A DNA stretch of 52,696 bases from Candidatus Woesearchaeota archaeon (GTDB taxonomy: Archaea > Nanobdellota > Nanobdellia > Pacearchaeales > GW2011-AR1), in the NCBI GenBank assembly GCA_964598635.1, contig CAZRCO010000001.1, positions 1 through 52,696 of the forward strand. Reading direction: 5' to 3'. Below the pieces are notes generated by a model. It was not told the DNA's origin. It saw only the letters and a program-made list of their open reading frames with translations, and did not search any database. Both the position numbers and the translations under genes were made by a program. Below are positions 36,467 to 47,488 of the stretch, in pieces (the first letter of the stretch is position 1; every line of letters starts with the position of its first letter).

Positions 36467-36748
36467 ATGAAAAAAGAGTTTGGGCTGGGGCAAAATAAAA
36501 GGATTATTTGGATATTAATATCTGTTATAATAGCTCTCTCTTTATTATTAATTTATTTGCTTGCTATAAGACCTGCAATAAGTGGTTATATAATTAATGC
36601 ACAAAATCAAGGATATGCTGCTGCAGTAATTTCAATTATGCAACAAGCTGTAACTTGCCAGACAGTTCCATTAACTTTTGGAAATCAAACTATCAATTTA
36701 ATTGCTATTGAATGCCTCCAACAACCACAAGTTAATCTTCAAGGATAA
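36467..36748 (+). CDS. Small membrane-anchored protein
   Basis: 93 aa, one TM segment (IIWILISVIIALSLLLIYLLAI). Ends 35 nt upstream of paralog C. Confidence 0.4.
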   Translation: MKKEFGLGQNKRIIWILISVIIALSLLLIYLLAIRPAISGYIINAQNQGYAAAVISIMQQAVTCQTVPLTFGNQTINLIAIECLQQPQVNLQG

Positions 36749-36783: not shown

Positions 36784-37917
36784 ATGAGTAAAAGAGGTAT
36801 TTCTGGAATTGTAGTTGCTTTGATACTGATTCTTTTGGCATTAGTTGCAGCAGGAATTATTTGGGTTGTTATAAGAAGTACTGTCTCTGAAGGAGTAGAA
36901 GAAGTTTCTTTGGGAAAATTCCTGATTGATTTAAACATAGAAAGGGCTTATATTGAAGGTAATAATCTCGTTGTAAATGTAAAGAGAAATCCAGGAGCAG
37001 GAGATTTAATTGCAATAAATTTTGTTGTCTCTGATGATTCAGAAACTGAAGTAGTCAGGCAGGATACAGACCTGAATGAATATGAAGGAAGAGAATTTAA
37101 TTTTACTTTACAAAATATAAATCTCAGTTCTATAAAAGAAATTTCTGTTGTCCCTGTTTATGTTTCCGGGGGTAAAGAAACTTTGGGAAGTATAACTGAT
37201 ACTTATAATGTAGGAGAAGAATCTCTTGAAGAAATTGAAGGAGATGGTATTGGTGAGACAGGAGGAACATGCACTGATGAAGAAACACAATCCTGTCCTT
37301 TCCAAAACGGAGTTTGTTCTGGTTCTTTACAAACATGTACTGGGGGAAGCTGGCCAGGATGTGATTATACTCCAATATCTGAATATGAATTGACAGAAAT
37401 AACTTGTAATGATGGTTTAGATAATGACTGTGATGGAAATACAGATACTGCAGACTCAAACTGCCAAATATCGGGATGTACCCCTGCTCCAGACCCAACA
37501 CTTCCCGGAATCTGTGGAGCAAGAGAATGTGGAAATGCTGAAAATGGAACTTGTGGAACAGTTAGTTGTGGGGATTGTCAACAATTATACGGTTCAGTAT
37601 ATATCTGCGATACAGACACAGGACAATGTGTTGTAGAAACTTCAGTTAATTCTGGAATCATTTATTCAGTTTGGCCTTCTGATGCTCCGAAATATCTTGA
37701 AAGTGAGAACTTGCCAAAATCCTCTGAAGGATACAATTATATTGGGTATTTTGTTAAATTCCCCGGCTCTGCTGAAACAGGTTGTATAATGATAACTTAT
37801 TTTGATTATCTGGCACAAAATGATAGAAGTTACATCAGGCTGGACAGAGTTGCTACAATAGCTTCCCCAGATAACTATGAAATATGGGCAACACAACAGG
37901 GATGCGAGGGAGTATAA
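36784..37917 (+). CDS. Type IV pilin-like surface protein, paralog C: class III signal peptide, stalk type 1, Cys-rich head
   Basis: MSKRG|ISGIVVALILILLALVAAGIIW. The stalk is similar to A (SLGKFLIDLNIERAY...). The head has about 18 Cys by my count and includes CNDGLDNDCDGNTDTADSNC. Confidence 0.7.
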   Translation: MSKRGISGIVVALILILLALVAAGIIWVVIRSTVSEGVEEVSLGKFLIDLNIERAYIEGNNLVVNVKRNPGAGDLIAINFVVSDDSETEVVRQDTDLNEYEGREFNFTLQNINLSSIKEISVVPVYVSGGKETLGSITDTYNVGEESLEEIEGDGIGETGGTCTDEETQSCPFQNGVCSGSLQTCTGGSWPGCDYTPISEYELTEITCNDGLDNDCDGNTDTADSNCQISGCTPAPDPTLPGICGARECGNAENGTCGTVSCGDCQQLYGSVYICDTDTGQCVVETSVNSGIIYSVWPSDAPKYLESENLPKSSEGYNYIGYFVKFPGSAETGCIMITYFDYLAQNDRSYIRLDRVATIASPDNYEIWATQQGCEGV

Positions 37918-37952: not shown

Positions 37953-38669
37953 TTAATAAATTCTTGTTTGAGGGAGAGGCATCATTTTCTTAATCACAAA
38001 CTTTGTCCCGATTACATCTGAAATTATTGCTGATAAAATTAATTTTCCAATTACTACTTTATAAATCCCAAAATCTATAGGGATTTTAGATACTTCAGAA
38101 AATTTATCTATTATTTCATCAATTTCTTCTCTATTAAGTATTATATTTGTAGGCTTAACCCCCATTGAGCCTATAACAACAATTCTTTTTTCAGGACCAT
38201 TGCACTCTATGGTTTTCACCGCAGGGTCTTTTATTAAAGGGTTCAATTTACCTAAATCTACTTGTCTCTCACCAGGAACTGGTCTAAGATACTGAAATTC
38301 AGGAGGAAGTTTTGGTTCTGGTATTCTTAAAACATAATCTGGTCTTATTTTTAATGGTGGTCTTGGAATTACTTTTGGGGTAATTTCTCGTCTCAGGGGC
38401 TTTGAAATAAGTGATGTTGTGGGTATCGTAGGCATTGAGATAAGGGGCTTTGATATGGGCATTGATGGTGTTGAAGGAAGTAATTTTGAGATTGGTGGTT
38501 TTCCGATTTCCCCTTCTTTCCTAATACCTTCTCTAACCTCTCTTTCTAAAGTTTTTTTTAATTCCAGAATTCTCCCTTCTCCTGAATTTTTGATTAATTC
38601 TTTTGTAAACGTTATTAGAAAAAAGGCTCTTTTTTCTTGGGATTCCAAATCCAAAGATTGTTTTGCCAT
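37953..38669 (-). CDS. Proline-rich protein ending in a FlaI/PilB/VirB11-type secretion-ATPase N-terminal domain, with no ATPase domain
   Basis: The C-terminal 90 or so aa, DPAVKTIECNGPEKRIVVIGSMGVKPTNIILNREEIDEIIDKFSEVSKIPIDFGIYKVVIGKLILSAIISDVIGTKFVIKKM, align by eye with the conserved D-P-x-[VL]-x-D-I-x-x-N-G...T-N...E-E...F-x-I-R-K block that precedes the Walker A domain in this ATPase family. The ORF stops 11 aa later. Confidence 0.45.
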   Translation of the reverse strand: MAKQSLDLESQEKRAFFLITFTKELIKNSGEGRILELKKTLEREVREGIRKEGEIGKPPISKLLPSTPSMPISKPLISMPTIPTTSLISKPLRREITPKVIPRPPLKIRPDYVLRIPEPKLPPEFQYLRPVPGERQVDLGKLNPLIKDPAVKTIECNGPEKRIVVIGSMGVKPTNIILNREEIDEIIDKFSEVSKIPIDFGIYKVVIGKLILSAIISDVIGTKFVIKKMMPLPQTRIY

Positions 38670-38671
38670 TT

Positions 38672-39193
38672 TTAATAAACTCTTTCTTGTTCGAATTCTT
38701 CTGGAGAAGAAATAGACTTTTGATATTCTTCTGAACTAACTTCTTTACCCTGACTTTGAGGAATTCTTTGTTTTGATTGAACTGTGGTTGGTATCCCCCT
38801 CATTTCTGTTCCTGTTCTGGTCTCCGCCCCTGTAACTGTTCTTTGATTCGTCTCATGCAACAATGTCAGACCTCTCGAAATAATTTTATTTTGTTCCAGA
38901 AGATTATCCAGTTTTTTCTCAATCTCTTTACTTCCCATTCCTGACTTTTCTGAAAAATCTTTTTTCATAATTGTTTTGGCAGAAAATTCAAATAATTCAA
39001 GCAACTTGGATATTTGCTTGCTAAGTTCTTCAAACTTTAAGGACAAATTTGTCATTACTTTCTGCATAGAAACAAAATTTTCGATGAGGATTCTTTCGGT
39101 GTTTCTATTCTTTTTTGAAAGTGAAGATTTACTTGCACTTCGCCCGGTTTTTGAGCCCTTTTTTGAACTTTTTTTTGAACCCCTTTTCACCAT
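38672..39193 (-). CDS. Hypothetical coiled-coil protein with basic N-terminus
   Basis: 173 aa, MVKRGSKKSSKKGSKTGRSASK..., then heptad-like segments. Ends 2 nt before the next ORF. Confidence 0.45.
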   Translation of the reverse strand: MVKRGSKKSSKKGSKTGRSASKSSLSKKNRNTERILIENFVSMQKVMTNLSLKFEELSKQISKLLELFEFSAKTIMKKDFSEKSGMGSKEIEKKLDNLLEQNKIISRGLTLLHETNQRTVTGAETRTGTEMRGIPTTVQSKQRIPQSQGKEVSSEEYQKSISSPEEFEQERVY

Positions 39194-39250
39194 ATTTTAA
39201 ATAAAGCATAGTTATTTATAAATTTTTAGAATTGCTTAAAAAAGAATTGT

Positions 39251-41758
39251 TTAGAAAATGTCTAAAACTTTTTCATCATTACCTGCTTCTGAATATGCAT
39301 ATTTGTTTTCTTCAGATTCTGTTTCTTCACTTTCCTGGAAATTTTCAAGAGGAAGAGACTCTGTTACAATCTTTTCTTCTTTATTTCCCTCAGGAGTTAA
39401 ATTCTCGGTTTTTGTAGATTCTGAAGGCAAAGACTTTAATGGACCTTTATCATTTCCTCCCTCCAAATTTTTCTCCAAATCTCTGGTGTAATTAGCTATA
39501 TCTGCTGCCATATCTGCATTAACACTTATGCTATCAATTCCTCTTTCAACTAAAAATTTAACCATATCTTTTCTACTTCCTGCCTGTCCGCAGATACTTG
39601 TCTCAACATTATATCTCTTACATATTCTTATTACGTATTCCAATTGATATAAAATTGCGGGATTCATTTCGTCATATAAACTCTGCACTTCCTCATTCCC
39701 CCTATCAACAGCCAGAGTATATTGAGTTAGATCATTAGTTCCAAAAGATACAAAATCTATTCCTTCATCACACAAATCTTTTATTAATTGAACAGATGCC
39801 GGAGTCTCTATCATCACTCCCACTTTTGCTCTTGGAAAATCTATTTTTTTCAAAAATTCTTTTACTTTTTTAACTTCATCAACAGCAATAATCTGCGGCA
39901 ACAATAAACCAATTTCCTTGTTCTGTTTTGAGATTCTTTTTAATGCCTTAAGCTCTGCACTTAATATTTCTGGTTTTTTTATGCCTGCTCTAATACCATG
40001 CATTCCTAACATTGGATTTATTTCAACTTTTTTCGGAGCTCCTTCCAAATTCTTAAATTCATCACTTCTAATATCTGAAGTTCTAACCCACAAACTGTCA
40101 AAAAATTTAGAAATTTCACTTACTCCTTTGTAAATTATTTCTTCATAGTCTCCAATTTTATTTTTTGCCAGAAAATAATTTGGATGCTTTCCTGATTCAG
40201 CAATAATTCCCTCAATTCTTAATAATCCAACTTCTTTTATATCTGATTTAGCAGCTCTTTTTGCAAAACTTGGTAAGTCAATTATAACTTTTATTTTGGT
40301 TTTTGTTTTCACGTTTACCGGCAAAACTTCTTTTTTCTCTGATTCTGCAATTTTTCCTTTGTATACTTTTCCTGTATATCCATCCACAGTTATTACTTCT
40401 CCCTCTTTTAATTTCATTGTAGCTTCTTTGGTTCCGACAATAGCAGGAATTCCCATCTCCCTGGAAACAATCGCAGCATGTGCTGTAAGCCCCCCTTCAT
40501 CTGTTACAATAGCAACAGACTTTTGCATTGTAACAACCATGTCTGGATTTGTCATCTTAGTTACCAATACATCCCCCTCACCAACTTTCCCCAAATCTCC
40601 TAAATCCAAAACAATTTTTACTTTCCCAGAACCAATTCCGGGAGAAGCACCAAGTCCCTTTAATATAATCTCTCCTTTAATTTCTCCTATAGACTCTTTC
40701 TCAACTCTTTTTTCAAGAGTTGTTATTGCCCTGGTTTGGACAATATAAATCCCTTCGCCTTCAATTGCAAATTCTATATCCTGGGGTTTTTTGTAGTGTT
40801 CTTCTAATTTCAGTGCAAACTCAGCAAGCTTATTTATCTCAAATTCCTTTAATACCTGTAAATGAGACTTTTCCTCAGGCAGTTTTATCTCAATTTTTTT
40901 TCCTCCAGGGTCTTTTGTTATAGCAATTTTTTTGTCTGCGATTTCTTTTTCAAGTATTTCAAAATCTTTTGACACTATATATCTATCAGGACTGATTCTG
41001 CCAGAAACAATACCCTCTCCCAAACCAAAAACAGCTTCAATTATTATATTATCATTTTTAAAAGACGGATCTTTTGAAAAAATAACCCCTGACTTATCCG
41101 AATCAACCATTTTTTGAACTACAACTGCAAGCCCTGCATCATGCTTAAATCCTTTCTTCTGTCTGTAATATGTCGCACGGGCAGTGAATAAAGATGCAAA
41201 ACATTCTTTTATTTTCAATAGTAGCTCTTCATTACCATGCACATTTAGAAAAGTTTCCTGCTGTCCTGCAAAACTTGCATCTTCTAAATCTTCTGTTGTT
41301 GCACTGCTCCTAACAGCAACAAAATTATATTCTGACTTTTTTTCAATGATATCCAAAGCTGTCCTTTCTTTTTCCTCTCCGCCAGAATCTTCAATATCCA
41401 GATTTTCGTAAGATTCAATAATCTCCTCTTCCAAATCTTTAGGCAGTTTTGAATTTACTATCAGTTGTCTAATTTGTTTTGTAGTATTTTCCAACTTTTT
41501 GGTATTTTCATAATTTATTTTTTCAAGAAGTTCCTTAATTTTTCCCTGTACACCGGATTTTTCTATAAAATAATTATATGCCTGAACTGTAACAACAAAA
41601 CCAGGGGGGACAGGAATTTTTAGATTATAAATCTCCCCTAAATTAGCTCCTTTTCCTCCAACAATGTTACCAGAATTCCTGTTCAGTTCAGAAAACCACT
41701 TAATAAAATCTTTCCTTTCACTTCCCCCTTTTTCACCAGCCTCTTTTTTCTCTGGCAT
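39251..41758 (-). CDS. ppsA: Phosphoenolpyruvate synthase (pyruvate, water dikinase) with acidic C-terminal tail
   Basis: GGKGANLGE (ATP-grasp N-domain), phospho-His domain GGLTAHAAIVSREMGIPAIVGT, and PEP-utilising TIM barrel FVSFGTNDLTQYTLAVDR. Confidence 0.9.
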   Translation of the reverse strand: MPEKKEAGEKGGSERKDFIKWFSELNRNSGNIVGGKGANLGEIYNLKIPVPPGFVVTVQAYNYFIEKSGVQGKIKELLEKINYENTKKLENTTKQIRQLIVNSKLPKDLEEEIIESYENLDIEDSGGEEKERTALDIIEKKSEYNFVAVRSSATTEDLEDASFAGQQETFLNVHGNEELLLKIKECFASLFTARATYYRQKKGFKHDAGLAVVVQKMVDSDKSGVIFSKDPSFKNDNIIIEAVFGLGEGIVSGRISPDRYIVSKDFEILEKEIADKKIAITKDPGGKKIEIKLPEEKSHLQVLKEFEINKLAEFALKLEEHYKKPQDIEFAIEGEGIYIVQTRAITTLEKRVEKESIGEIKGEIILKGLGASPGIGSGKVKIVLDLGDLGKVGEGDVLVTKMTNPDMVVTMQKSVAIVTDEGGLTAHAAIVSREMGIPAIVGTKEATMKLKEGEVITVDGYTGKVYKGKIAESEKKEVLPVNVKTKTKIKVIIDLPSFAKRAAKSDIKEVGLLRIEGIIAESGKHPNYFLAKNKIGDYEEIIYKGVSEISKFFDSLWVRTSDIRSDEFKNLEGAPKKVEINPMLGMHGIRAGIKKPEILSAELKALKRISKQNKEIGLLLPQIIAVDEVKKVKEFLKKIDFPRAKVGVMIETPASVQLIKDLCDEGIDFVSFGTNDLTQYTLAVDRGNEEVQSLYDEMNPAILYQLEYVIRICKRYNVETSICGQAGSRKDMVKFLVERGIDSISVNADMAADIANYTRDLEKNLEGGNDKGPLKSLPSESTKTENLTPEGNKEEKIVTESLPLENFQESEETESEENKYAYSEAGNDEKVLDIF

Positions 41759-41842: not shown

Positions 41843-42964
41843 TTAACTTAAATCTAAATTATAGAGTCCTTTAACTTGTTGTTCCATGAGGGCTTTATTA
41901 AAAATCATTACTTCATCTATCTGGCCTTTAAAATAACCTTTTCCTGTAGGGCAACCGCTGTTAACTCCTCCCCCAATCTTTACATTTTCACTATTTGTAA
42001 TAACTAAGTTTCCACTAGTAATATCCTGCGAATCAAGTTCCCCATCAATATATGTTTTTTGTTCAGATGTATTAATATCATAACTAAAGGCTAAATGTTT
42101 CCATTCATCAGCAGAAGCTGGTGAATCAGTCCATAATCTATATGTGTCATCTTCTAATTTTAGAGTAAAACCAACTTTCCCTTGGGGACTCCAATCAGCT
42201 TCCCAGATTAAATGATATACTCCCCAATCTCCTTTGTTTAATAAATATCTCCAATTATTATTGTCATTACAATCCATTCCAGAACTTGGCTTTATCCACA
42301 TAACAAGAGTAATCCCTTCTCTAATGTCCAAACTTTGGTCATTTCCTACATCTACATAATCATCATTCCCGTCAAAATTTGCAGCTTGACCAAAATTACT
42401 ATCAATAAAACCTATACCCCCTTGCGTTGTCCCATGATTTCCTCCAATTTCATCGCTTGAATCTCCGTCAAACTTCCACCAAGAGACAGCTCCTAAATTC
42501 TCTAAAATTTGCTTGGTTGAAAACTCTTCTTTATCTGCTTCTCTTCCAAATTCTTCCTTTCCACTTTCAGAAGTGACTCCAGGAGCAATTAAAATTTCTT
42601 TAACAAATGCTATATCCCCAAGTTCAGAATAAGAAATAGTAAAAGTTTCATATTCAAGCTCTTTTAATGTTGTTTCTTTTTTGATTGTCTTGCTCTTTTC
42701 ACCATCAGAAATAATAAAAGCTATTGAAGTCATCTCGGTATCTTCACTTCCTGACCCTCTTTTTACTGTAACCTTCACATCACCATTATCTTCGGTTTTA
42801 ACTTTTTGTATTTGCAAATCCAGAAAAAAACTCCCTAAAGAAACCTTTTCTGTTTCTTTTGTAAGAATATTTTTGATAACTGCCCAAACAATTCCTGCAG
42901 CAACCAATGAAAGCAAAATTAATATTAAAGCTACTATAATTCCAGAAATACCTCTTTTATACAT
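41843..42964 (-). CDS. Type IV pilin-like surface protein, paralog D: class III signal peptide, stalk type 2, LamG/concanavalin-like head
   Basis: MYKRG|ISGIIVALILILLSLVAAGIVW. The stalk IAFIISDGEKSKTIKKETTLKELEYETFTIS...SESGKEEFGREADK is almost the same as B. The head reads AVSWWKFDGDSSDEIGGNHGTTQGG...FDGNDDYV...WKHLAFSYD...IDEVMIFNKAL (LamG pattern). Confidence 0.7.
   Translation of the reverse strand: MYKRGISGIIVALILILLSLVAAGIVWAVIKNILTKETEKVSLGSFFLDLQIQKVKTEDNGDVKVTVKRGSGSEDTEMTSIAFIISDGEKSKTIKKETTLKELEYETFTISYSELGDIAFVKEILIAPGVTSESGKEEFGREADKEEFSTKQILENLGAVSWWKFDGDSSDEIGGNHGTTQGGIGFIDSNFGQAANFDGNDDYVDVGNDQSLDIREGITLVMWIKPSSGMDCNDNNNWRYLLNKGDWGVYHLIWEADWSPQGKVGFTLKLEDDTYRLWTDSPASADEWKHLAFSYDINTSEQKTYIDGELDSQDITSGNLVITNSENVKIGGGVNSGCPTGKGYFKGQIDEVMIFNKALMEQQVKGLYNLDLS
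42530..42964 (-). repeat. Inverted copy of the signal-peptide plus stalk type 2 module (partner 34291..34722)
   Basis: See the partner feature. It also shares an 84-nt perfect run with paralog A (29456..29539). Confidence 0.8.
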
Positions 42965-45433: not shown

Positions 45434-47488
45434 TTATTTTTTTCCTCCTTCTAATCTCTTAAGAAATTCACTTATAAATTTTTTATCCTCTCCCCTAACC
45501 TTTCTAATATCTTTTATAATATAAGCTTCAACATCTTTCATATTACATTTTTCTGTTTTTACATCAGAAAGTAGCTTCTCTCTGGCTTCCTTGCTTAACA
45601 GAACCTCTCCTTCTGAAACTGCTGAAAGTTTCTTTGCTGTATTTATTAATGTTCCCAGACTCATAAATTTCAATCTATCTTTATCCTGTTTTGCAACAAT
45701 CTGGCCGGTATGCAAAGAAACCCCAAATTCTATTTTTTGTTTTGCTAATTTATTATAATCTTTTAAGAATTCTGAAATTTTCTCTGCAACATCCACTGCT
45801 ATTCTTTCGTTTTTGAATGTTTTTGTTTTTATTGGAGCAATTATAAAGAATATATTATCCTGATTCTCATAAGTAAATGCTTTACTATTTTCCGCTATAT
45901 TAATTACATTTTGTAAAGTCTCTAAAACATTTCCTTTTCTTAAATCTATATCCTTAAGATTTTTTATCTTAATACATACGACACTTGTGTTTTGTTTATC
46001 TCCTTTAAGAGATAAAGAAAGTTCTGCCTTATTTTTAGCTCCAGACATTAAACTTCCACTATAAGATTTAGAGGAAATCAATTTTTCTCCAATAGCGCCC
46101 CTGCCTGTCATTTCCCCTACTCTTTTCCTTTTTCCGGGGAGAAATCTTCCAAAAAAACTTCTCTTATATCCCTTCGTGAAAACCATAAATAATACAAATC
46201 CCAAAACAAGTATTATAAAAATCCAGACAAAAGGATATCTCAATAAACCAACCCCTGAGCCTTCTTTAATATCTATCACTTTTCCTGTCAACATTGTTCT
46301 TTCACTAAATATTTTCTCTTCATCATCCATCACTTCAACATGATATTCTCCATCCGGGGCAGTTAAAATATATTTTTGGACTTTATCAACTTCCAAATAA
46401 ACATCTAATTTCAATGATTCATTTCCTATTTTAATAATAAGGCTTCTGTTATATGGAACGTTCCCCACATTTGTTATTGTAACACTTTCATTAATTAACT
46501 CAACTTTAACACCTTCTTTCTCCTGTATTGTAAATGTTGCTTCACTTGTTAATCCGTTTGAACTGGCAAGAACTTTCCAAACTGCCGGAGGCTGATTATA
46601 CGCAATTGGAAGCTCAAATAGTTCATCTGTCATTTTTTCAGTTTGTTCAAAAATTTCACTTTTATTATTTTTTACAGTCAAAACTGCATTTGATTCTATC
46701 TTTTCTCCAGTCTGATCATGAAGAATTGCTTTAACTTGCAGACTTGTACCCGGCTCTACTTCCTGATTATTAAATAAAATTTCCAAACTTGTAGGCACCT
46801 GTAGTATCTGCAAGTTGTAATTTCCAAAGCCCTGGTTTGTTCTTTCATCATATTTATCTATCTCATACACATTAATCGCAATAATATATTTACCAGCTTT
46901 AAGATCATTAGGAAGAGATATATTCACAGAAAAAAAACCATTCCTTACAGTATCTGTTTTTGTTAATACTGAAGAATTCCCTTCTCTTATTTCTAAATTC
47001 ACAAAACCACTTTTGACCGCTTCTCCATTTTCTTTAATCGCCTCTCCTTCTACTAACACACTCTCGCCGGGTTTAAATTCTTCTTCATTGCTTAAAATTT
47101 CCAATATTATCAAATTTGATACTTCAAATTCCTCTGTTATTTCAGGCTCAAAACCTTCTAAAGAAAATTTTACAACACAATGGCCTGTTGTTCTTCCTAA
47201 ACGTTCTTTAGTCAAAATAAAAGAGAGTGCTATTGTCTCTTGTTCTCCACTGGAAAGAATGATGTCCTTTGAAAAGACAGTATTTTGCAAACCGTTACAG
47301 ATTACGTATACATCAAGAGAACTTTTTAAATCCTCAAGGGTGCTTATTTTAGCATTTGTATTTACAACATCTCCAATATTAAAGGGTCCTTTTGGAGATT
47401 CACTTAAAGTAATTTCAGCAGCAGAAATAACAGATATAAGAAAAACTGCAAGGATTAAACTTAATACCACTCTTTTCATTCTATACAA
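45434..47488 (-). CDS. Receptor-like single-pass membrane protein: signal peptide, about 400-aa Ig/MG-like ectodomain, TM, cytoplasmic class III nucleotidyl-cyclase-like domain (degenerate)
   Basis: The cytoplasmic tail (residues about 501-639) follows the cyclase-homology pattern: VVCIKIKNL (in place of F-x-D-I-x-G-F), QDNIFFIIAP, FGVSLHTGQIVAK and FMSLGTLINTAKKLSAVSEGEVLLSKEAREKL. Confidence 0.5.
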   Translation of the reverse strand: MYRMKRVVLSLILAVFLISVISAAEITLSESPKGPFNIGDVVNTNAKISTLEDLKSSLDVYVICNGLQNTVFSKDIILSSGEQETIALSFILTKERLGRTTGHCVVKFSLEGFEPEITEEFEVSNLIILEILSNEEEFKPGESVLVEGEAIKENGEAVKSGFVNLEIREGNSSVLTKTDTVRNGFFSVNISLPNDLKAGKYIIAINVYEIDKYDERTNQGFGNYNLQILQVPTSLEILFNNQEVEPGTSLQVKAILHDQTGEKIESNAVLTVKNNKSEIFEQTEKMTDELFELPIAYNQPPAVWKVLASSNGLTSEATFTIQEKEGVKVELINESVTITNVGNVPYNRSLIIKIGNESLKLDVYLEVDKVQKYILTAPDGEYHVEVMDDEEKIFSERTMLTGKVIDIKEGSGVGLLRYPFVWIFIILVLGFVLFMVFTKGYKRSFFGRFLPGKRKRVGEMTGRGAIGEKLISSKSYSGSLMSGAKNKAELSLSLKGDKQNTSVVCIKIKNLKDIDLRKGNVLETLQNVINIAENSKAFTYENQDNIFFIIAPIKTKTFKNERIAVDVAEKISEFLKDYNKLAKQKIEFGVSLHTGQIVAKQDKDRLKFMSLGTLINTAKKLSAVSEGEVLLSKEAREKLLSDVKTEKCNMKDVEAYIIKDIRKVRGEDKKFISEFLKRLEGGKK

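Follow-up and report, generated by a model that had tools for sequence, protein, structure and literature searches.

Why would an archaeon keep the N-terminal domain of a secretion ATPase in a gene of its own, with no ATPase attached? The question is raised by a stretch of 52,696 nucleotides from a Candidatus Woesearchaeota archaeon (contig CAZRCO010000001.1 of assembly GCA_964598635.1), here called the window. The contig is archaeal and of low GC content (~32%), and the source assembly holds 480 kb in 29 contigs and is ~80% complete. A first-pass annotation, made from the letters alone, drew attention to an open reading frame (ORF) of 238 amino acids (aa) on the minus strand and offered two readings of it: (a) a stand-alone docking or regulatory module for a pilus ATPase encoded elsewhere, or (b) the remnant of an assembly ATPase that was truncated when a pilin-like paralog was inserted downstream. 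The ORF is present as described there, and so is the upstream ORF for a protein with a basic head, which ends 2 nt before it. We suggest, with a rough probability of 0.65, that this intact and presumably co-transcribed pair encodes a non-enzymatic two-protein cytoplasmic module, in which a former ATPase N-domain would serve as a docking head. The two genes, and the parts of the protein that we call the orphan, are as follows.

37953..38669, minus strand: orphan gene (the whole ORF, 238 aa), encoding a FlaI/GspE-type N-domain protein without an ATPase
38520..38651, minus strand: N-terminal helices of the orphan, residues 7-28 and 31-50 (AlphaFold helices H7-28 and H31-50), with the conserved motif F-L-L-x-F-T-K-E-L-I
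38325..38519, minus strand: poorly conserved Pro-rich tether, residues 51-115, without secondary structure (predicted local distance difference test score, pLDDT, 47-67)
38304..38324, minus strand: I-P-E-P-K-L-P motif, residues 116-122, matching N-I-x-E-P-x-L of distant orphans
37986..38261, minus strand: residues 137-228, an N2-like alpha/beta domain with homology to FlaI, afGspE, CpaF and VirB11 N-domains; its last motif is F-V-I-K-K
38672..39193, minus strand: partner gene (ORF, 173 aa), encoding a hairpin protein

An N-domain without its ATPase

The likeness of the orphan to secretion-ATPase N-domains, first seen by eye in its C-terminal ~90 residues, is far beyond chance, and the profile and Foldseek searches that were proposed as a check on it do recover this domain. 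As a single sequence searched against the PDB, the window protein has afGspE and FlaI as its best two matches, over the expected residues and weakly (E=0.2). An alignment profile of 36 family members (A1) finds afGspE with E=5.9e-4 and FlaI with E=6.5e-3, and a broader profile with members from other Nanoarchaeia families (A3) finds afGspE (2OAP) with E=8.2e-18 over residues 37-229, to FTIRKF, and FlaI with E=4.7e-10. The NCBIfam FlaI model NF058587 matches the window protein with E=3.4e-5 and a distant family member with E=3.1e-25, at model positions 32-230 of 527. The AlphaFold model of the orphan has two N-terminal helices, a disordered middle and a confident region at residues 120-230 (pLDDT 88-95), and its top 12 Foldseek matches in the PDB are all afGspE, FlaI, CpaF/TadA or VirB11, over ~100 columns with a root-mean-square deviation (rmsd) of 1.7-2.4 Å. 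For the N-domains of afGspE (2OAP/2OAQ) and FlaI (4II7/4IHQ), the E value is ~4e-6, the rmsd 1.8-2.4 Å over ~100 columns and the identity 24-27%. The N2 domains of PilB/PilT/GspE, CpaF/TadA (9E24, 8RKD) and VirB11 (2GZA) belong to the same fold class (Foldseek E 8e-6 to 8e-4); unlike the orphan, these bacterial domains are always covalently joined to an ATPase core, and their identity to it is only 12-20%. The assignment of the alpha/beta domain thus has its basis in sequence profiles, the structure match and a column-by-column alignment with ATPase N-domains, in which the motifs D-P-x-V-x-x-I-x-C-x-G, T-N-I, E-E-I-D and F-x-I-[KR]-K are common to the orphan, afGspE and FlaI. Pfam recognises neither the window protein nor the other family members (no PF00437 match), and the N1-type T2SSE_N/MshEN domain PF05157 has no match at E<=1 in the window protein or the 36 family members.

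Ahead of the alpha/beta domain two features set the orphan apart from afGspE and FlaI, an additional helical segment at the N-terminus and the Pro-rich tether. Within the helices F21, L25 and I26 are invariant across A1, and these helices are the proposed contact with the hairpin partner. The tether varies in length and sequence across A1 and contains the Pro-rich stretch PPISKLLPSTPSMPISKPLISMPTIPTT, which the first-pass annotation had noted in the N-terminal half and which we locate at residues 58-85. It is followed by the I-P-E-P-K-L-P motif, with P117 and P122 invariant in A1, around which the profile alignment with afGspE begins. Distant orphans retain the helical part that precedes the alpha/beta domain in afGspE and FlaI, together with the E-P-x-L motif. 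In the lineage of the window the helical part is reduced to the I-P-E-P-K-L-P relic inside the Pro-rich tether.

At its other end the orphan terminates shortly past F-V-I-K-K, the motif found ahead of the RecA domain in genuine ATPases. The short tail had been noted before, and its length is 10 aa rather than the 11 first counted from GTKFVIKK. Measured against the features of the PilT/VirB11-like superfamily (PF00437), the protein possesses the N2-like alpha/beta N-domain and lacks the RecA-like C-terminal domain (CTD) with its Walker A, atypical Walker B, Asp box and His box. Two arginine fingers are among the completely conserved residues of this superfamily (McCallum et al., PMC5424180), and, unlike in afGspE and FlaI, they are not conserved in the orphans. 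In the column of finger 1, R occurs in 21 of 22 resident ATPases, and among the 54 orphans I, V and K predominate. In the column of finger 2, R occurs in 19 of 19 ATPases; the 54 orphans have K (33), R (8) or another residue (13). The columns were assigned by motif, and it is we who equate them with the published fingers (PMC5424180). By this alignment, the orphan family has not kept the two arginine fingers.

The short form of the gene is widespread, with at least 406 homologues of 215-260 aa in a 90%-identity protein database (genome counts here and below are lower bounds). The few names given by the sources are 'hypothetical protein', from metagenome-assembled genomes of Pacearchaeota, Woesearchaeota or Nanoarchaeota. 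An exhaustive profile search returned 1,642 clusters at 50% identity, and the 150 clusters among the matches listed are 137-321 aa long. In the A3 alignment the full length is conserved and all orphans stop directly past F-x-I-[KR]-K. The window protein lies inside the bounds set for the provisional family, a length of ~190-350 aa with an end just past F-x-I-[KR]-[KR]. A maximum-likelihood tree built on the N-domain core separates 27 orphans from 21 resident ATPase N-domains by a single branch (UFBoot/SH-aLRT 100/99), which is present in 100% of the bootstrap trees. Because the tree is unrooted it gives one split and not proven monophyly. The branch argues that the orphans trace to one old event rather than to local ATPase genes that decayed repeatedly: a FlaI/afGspE-type secretion ATPase would have lost its RecA-like domain once, early in the evolution of Nanoarchaeia.

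The hairpin partner and the surroundings of the pair

Of the remarks in the first-pass annotation, the one on the upstream coiled-coil gene was the most important, for this gene proved to be an invariant partner. In 29 of 29 fetched loci, 10 of them from other families of the GTDB, local hidden Markov models placed it immediately upstream of the orphan and in the same orientation. When coordinates were compared from two phylum-wide searches, all 56 genomes (15 GTDB families) that had both genes among the matches listed had the two side by side on one strand. The partner has at least 589 homologues and is single-copy in at least 249 of 301 sampled Nanoarchaeota genomes (83%); a recognisable orphan is present in at least 56. 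Its product has a disordered basic head (residues 1-26, K/S/R-rich), two helices at residues 27-79 and 87-121 (AlphaFold, pLDDT >90) and a P/Q-rich tail that carries the short C-terminal motif E-Y-Q-K-S-I-S-S. The head is variable and of low complexity, and the two long helices are conserved. The protein database holds the partner as a 127-aa product from Met47 (P0121, 100% identity, 73% coverage). The 173-aa start appears more likely, because the homologues also have the basic head and can be aligned from the first Met onward.

In the window, the TAA stop of the partner is separated from the orphan ATG by 2 nt. In relatives the stop and start of the pair overlap, and the junctions vary (2-nt gap, 1-nt gap, overlaps of ~26-32 nt). 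A recoding site is thus not conserved, and a fusion of the two genes by read-through or frameshift was rejected on these grounds.

In 14 loci sampled from lineages with no detected orphan (L099-L112), the second gene of the pair encodes instead a coiled-coil protein (138-307 aa) that is all-helical, rich in K and E and without an N-domain; this may be an older form of the second gene. Its N-terminal amphipathic helix resembles that of the orphan. When the two were compared with hhalign they aligned in register, with a probability of 0.15% and E=0.39, which is no profile support.

Searches of the partner against the PDB, by sequence and by fold, returned only coiled-coil noise, including a weak match to ATF-4 (E=0.038). 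In Pfam all matches are below threshold: bZIP_1 in 5 of 26 members, and FlaC_arch (PF05377) likewise in 5 of 26, below the gathering cut-off and with a best E of 0.0029; the partner in the window has no FlaC_arch match itself. The idea that the partner is a divergent prefoldin, which came from the adjacency to thermosome genes described below, was rejected because canonical prefoldin is encoded at other loci, beta in 24 and alpha in 22 of 26 relatives, and the pair therefore does not stand in for it. Neither PF01920 nor PF02996 matched the partner. Prefoldin alpha and beta were not detected in the assembly of the window itself (G000), probably owing to its ~80% completeness.

The neighbouring features of the pair in the window are these.

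39213..39222, minus strand: TATA-box-like element TTTATAAATA, ~24 nt 5' of the partner ATG and inside the gap of 57 nt, overlapping a promoter-like consensus match
39251-41758, minus strand: phosphoenolpyruvate (PEP) synthase/PPDK-type gene, upstream of the pair, with the 57-nt gap between it and the partner ORF
36784-37917, plus strand: convergent pilin-like gene with a class-III-signal-peptide-like N-terminus, 35 nt past the orphan ORF

The element TTTATAAATA is a possible promoter of the two-gene unit's own. A PEP synthase gene lies upstream in all five close relatives examined, and distant lineages have other neighbours; a functional link to the PEP synthase/PPDK gene was rejected because the adjacency is limited to close relatives. 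The pilin-like neighbour pointed out in the first-pass annotation is indeed found beside the orphan, both in the window and in close relatives, where convergent pilin-like or small transmembrane (TM) protein genes lie downstream. The association does not extend to the more distant families or to locus L008. Given the convergent orientation and these absences, a functional link to the pilin-like genes was rejected as well.

Among 24 loci of other families, 11 have a thermosome gene (Cpn60/TCP-1) 0.05-2.6 kb upstream of the partner on the same strand (L025-L027, L030, L099, L102, L106-L109 and L112), an arrangement that may be the ancestral gene order. Other neighbours at the distant loci are genes for TFB (twice, upstream), RFC (downstream), Fic, TldD and MFS proteins. 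No conserved third gene was found between the thermosome gene and the pair or past the pair, and no gene for an ATPase, a platform protein or a prepilin peptidase adjoins the pair in any locus, the 24 distant loci included.

Several other genes of the window recur in relatives. The gene at 36467-36748 (plus strand) encodes a member of a set of small TM-anchored proteins (86-97 aa) with the motif G-N-Q-T-I-N-L-I-A-x-E-C. It is kept in L003, L005, L007, L008, L009 and L012, where it heads or adjoins the convergent pilin-like genes, and in L007 and L008 it is itself directly convergent to the orphan; it belongs with the pilin-side genes. A further pilin-like paralog (41843-42964, minus strand) has a Laminin_G_3 (concanavalin-like lectin) head (Pfam E=5e-24), and a 1,718-aa Laminin_G_3 protein occupies the corresponding place in L007. 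The gene at 45434-47488 (minus strand) encodes a protein of ~610-684 aa with weak matches to MG2/DUF4469 Ig-like domains and to a cyclase-homology domain. It is syntenic in L003, L005 and L007 and also occurs near the pair in L030, from a distant family (E=2.6e-26).

Docking head, remnant or regulator

What, then, could such a pair do? The orphan is probably a docking protein that burns no ATP, because it keeps only the motor's N-terminal domain and has a constant helical partner. We propose that its N-terminal helices bundle with the partner hairpin, giving a heterodimer, and that the Pro-rich tether displays the former ATPase N-domain as a protein-docking head. This head would neither bind nor hydrolyse ATP, and it has not kept the two nucleotide-sensing arginines. 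Potential targets exist, since the genome encodes two complete ATPases with N-domains of their own, of 515 aa (contig 10) and 761 aa (contig 7). Docking on an ATPase would use the surface where the N-domain normally packs against the neighbouring subunit. The most tangible candidate for the target, and by ancestry the obvious one, would be the cell's own FlaI/PilB-type ATPases, through their RecA-like domain or their platform partner, a suggestion that we think is more probably wrong than right. A role unrelated to pili, for which the head was exapted, is at least as likely as docking on type IV filament machinery, and we would give it even odds.

Three sets of observations weigh against the proposed module. 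The near-universal partner also precedes second genes without an N-domain, in the 14 loci described above, and because of this pairing the core job of the module may not need the ATPase-derived head at all. Neither type of ATPase strictly co-occurs with the orphan: G249 (2 contigs, 93% complete) has the ~770-aa type only and G250, of the same GTDB family, the ~515-aa type only, and both retain the pair. Finally, the gene context in the 24 distant loci has no link to pilus machinery; the platform, pilin and peptidase genes that typically lie near superfamily ATPases are not found there.

Of the two readings offered at the outset, truncation is refuted. A remnant of an assembly ATPase, cut by insertion of the downstream pilin paralog, would account for an ORF that ends exactly where the RecA domain would start, with a convergent pilin-like gene 35 nt further on. 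It does not account for a short gene that is full-length in hundreds of genomes, also where no pilin gene follows, or for orphans that all stop past the same motif and stand apart from the ATPases in the unrooted tree (100/99). The first-pass annotation had proposed to look for an intact full-length ortholog in relatives and for degraded ATPase sequence nearby. At the syntenic site the five relatives (43-57% identity; contigs of up to 401 kb) carry this short gene, of 215-260 aa, and no full-length ortholog, and tblastn with the genome's two full ATPases as queries found no RecA remnant anywhere in the window, including 36.7-38.0 kb; the remark that no Walker A domain follows on that strand holds accordingly. 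With conserved short orthologues, the empty tblastn search, the 1,642 clusters and the tree all opposed to it, we rejected truncation and consider its chance negligible. A split gene, in which the N-domain would act in trans with a separate CTD-only ATPase and so rebuild a normal motor, is only slightly less improbable. The two resident ATPases that we read and all 21 in the tree have their own N-domains, and in the genome of the window and 16 others that have an orphan, all PF00437 matches above the cut-off lie in frames of at least 490 aa, with no solid short match that could be a CTD-only ATPase in these 17 genomes. The orphan is therefore not half of a split motor, and a reconstituted motor would need the very fingers that it has lost; this candidate too was rejected. 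What stands of reading (a) is its first part, an intact, selected, stand-alone gene, with full FlaI/PilB-type ATPases encoded elsewhere in the genome. For its second part, the docking on or regulation of a pilus ATPase, the gene context gives no support.

That second part can be put more sharply, as a trans-acting regulator or decoy, whose free N-domain would occupy the packing-unit interface or a platform site and so control the assembly of the nearby pilin-like proteins. The ancestry of the domain (Foldseek and the A3 profile) speaks for it, as does the fact that the contact between N2D and CTD of adjacent chains is the principal interface of these hexamers, the 'packing unit' (PMC5424180). 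In close relatives the pair is convergent to pilin-like genes, and all genomes tested that have an orphan encode one full ATPase or more; this co-occurrence says little, because ATPases are near-universal in the phylum. Beyond that, the pair never adjoins ATPase, platform or peptidase genes, neither L008 nor the distant families have the adjacency to pilins, the orphans have lost the arginine fingers, and the partner pairs with N-domain-less proteins as well. We regard regulation of this kind as possible and doubtful, at perhaps the same level as the choice of target above. A bolder version is less likely still: that the near-universal hairpin protein, always paired with a second tethered protein, is an undescribed cytoplasmic scaffold, and that in at least 15 families, this one included, the N-domain head acts in trans on FlaI/PilB-type hexamers or their membrane platform, mimicking the inter-subunit contact, as a switch for the pilus-like surface filaments of these host-dependent cells. 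The partner being single-copy and near-universal would also suit a housekeeping factor associated with nucleic acids or chaperones, binding DNA or RNA in a bZIP-like manner or assisting the thermosome, for which the N-domain would be a borrowed fold. Many neighbours are indeed information-processing or chaperone genes (thermosome in 11 of 24 distant loci, TFB twice, RFC), and there are the weak bZIP-type matches (ATF-4, E=0.038; bZIP_1, 5 of 26). Such matches are typical of coiled-coil composition, however, and the basic head is of low complexity, variable, predicted to be disordered and without a conserved bZIP basic motif. Reduced genomes can keep the order of housekeeping genes without a functional link, and with canonical prefoldin alpha and beta present in relatives the pair does not replace prefoldin. 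We consider a housekeeping role of this kind improbable, and prefer the two-protein module with a docking head.

Relation to known systems and meaning of the family

To our knowledge, the PilT/VirB11-type N-domain has so far been known solely in covalent union with the ATPase, in which it makes up the 'packing unit' between subunits. The orphan departs from afGspE and FlaI in having no RecA-like domain, and in that its gene, always paired with the hairpin gene, lies outside pilus and archaellum loci. Stand-alone or extra GSPII/T2SSE_N domains (N1, of the MshEN type) bind cyclic di-GMP or GspL and are separate interaction or regulatory modules. Those are N1 domains, unlike the orphan, which is N2-like and corresponds to the domain adjoining the RecA core.

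For the partner, the nearest comparison is with FlaC/D/E, FlaX and arCOG07564, small cytoplasmic proteins of coiled-coil type from archaeal type IV filament systems that are believed to work alongside FlaI-type ATPases (PMC4858521). Among the weak Pfam matches of the partner family, FlaC_arch comes up most often (5 of 26, best E=0.0029). In contrast to FlaC-type accessory proteins, the partner gene lies outside any filament locus, and its sub-threshold matches are of the kind that coiled-coil composition typically gives. Neither of two surveys of type IV filament systems in archaea (PMC4858521; PMC13705601) mentions proteins such as the orphan and its partner, and neither protein is recognised by Pfam or by the source annotations. 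The orphan family is large and, it appears, has gone undescribed in these tiny DPANN archaea.

That a family so large, old and strictly conserved retains the N-domain by itself would show that this domain can lead an independent life. The surface filaments of DPANN archaea are thought to mediate contact with the host. Should the resident ATPases be what the pair acts on, type IV filaments in these archaea would have a regulator of a new type; if not, a motor domain would clearly have been exapted for another role. The hairpin partner is an uncharacterised near-core gene of Nanoarchaeota that deserves a name.

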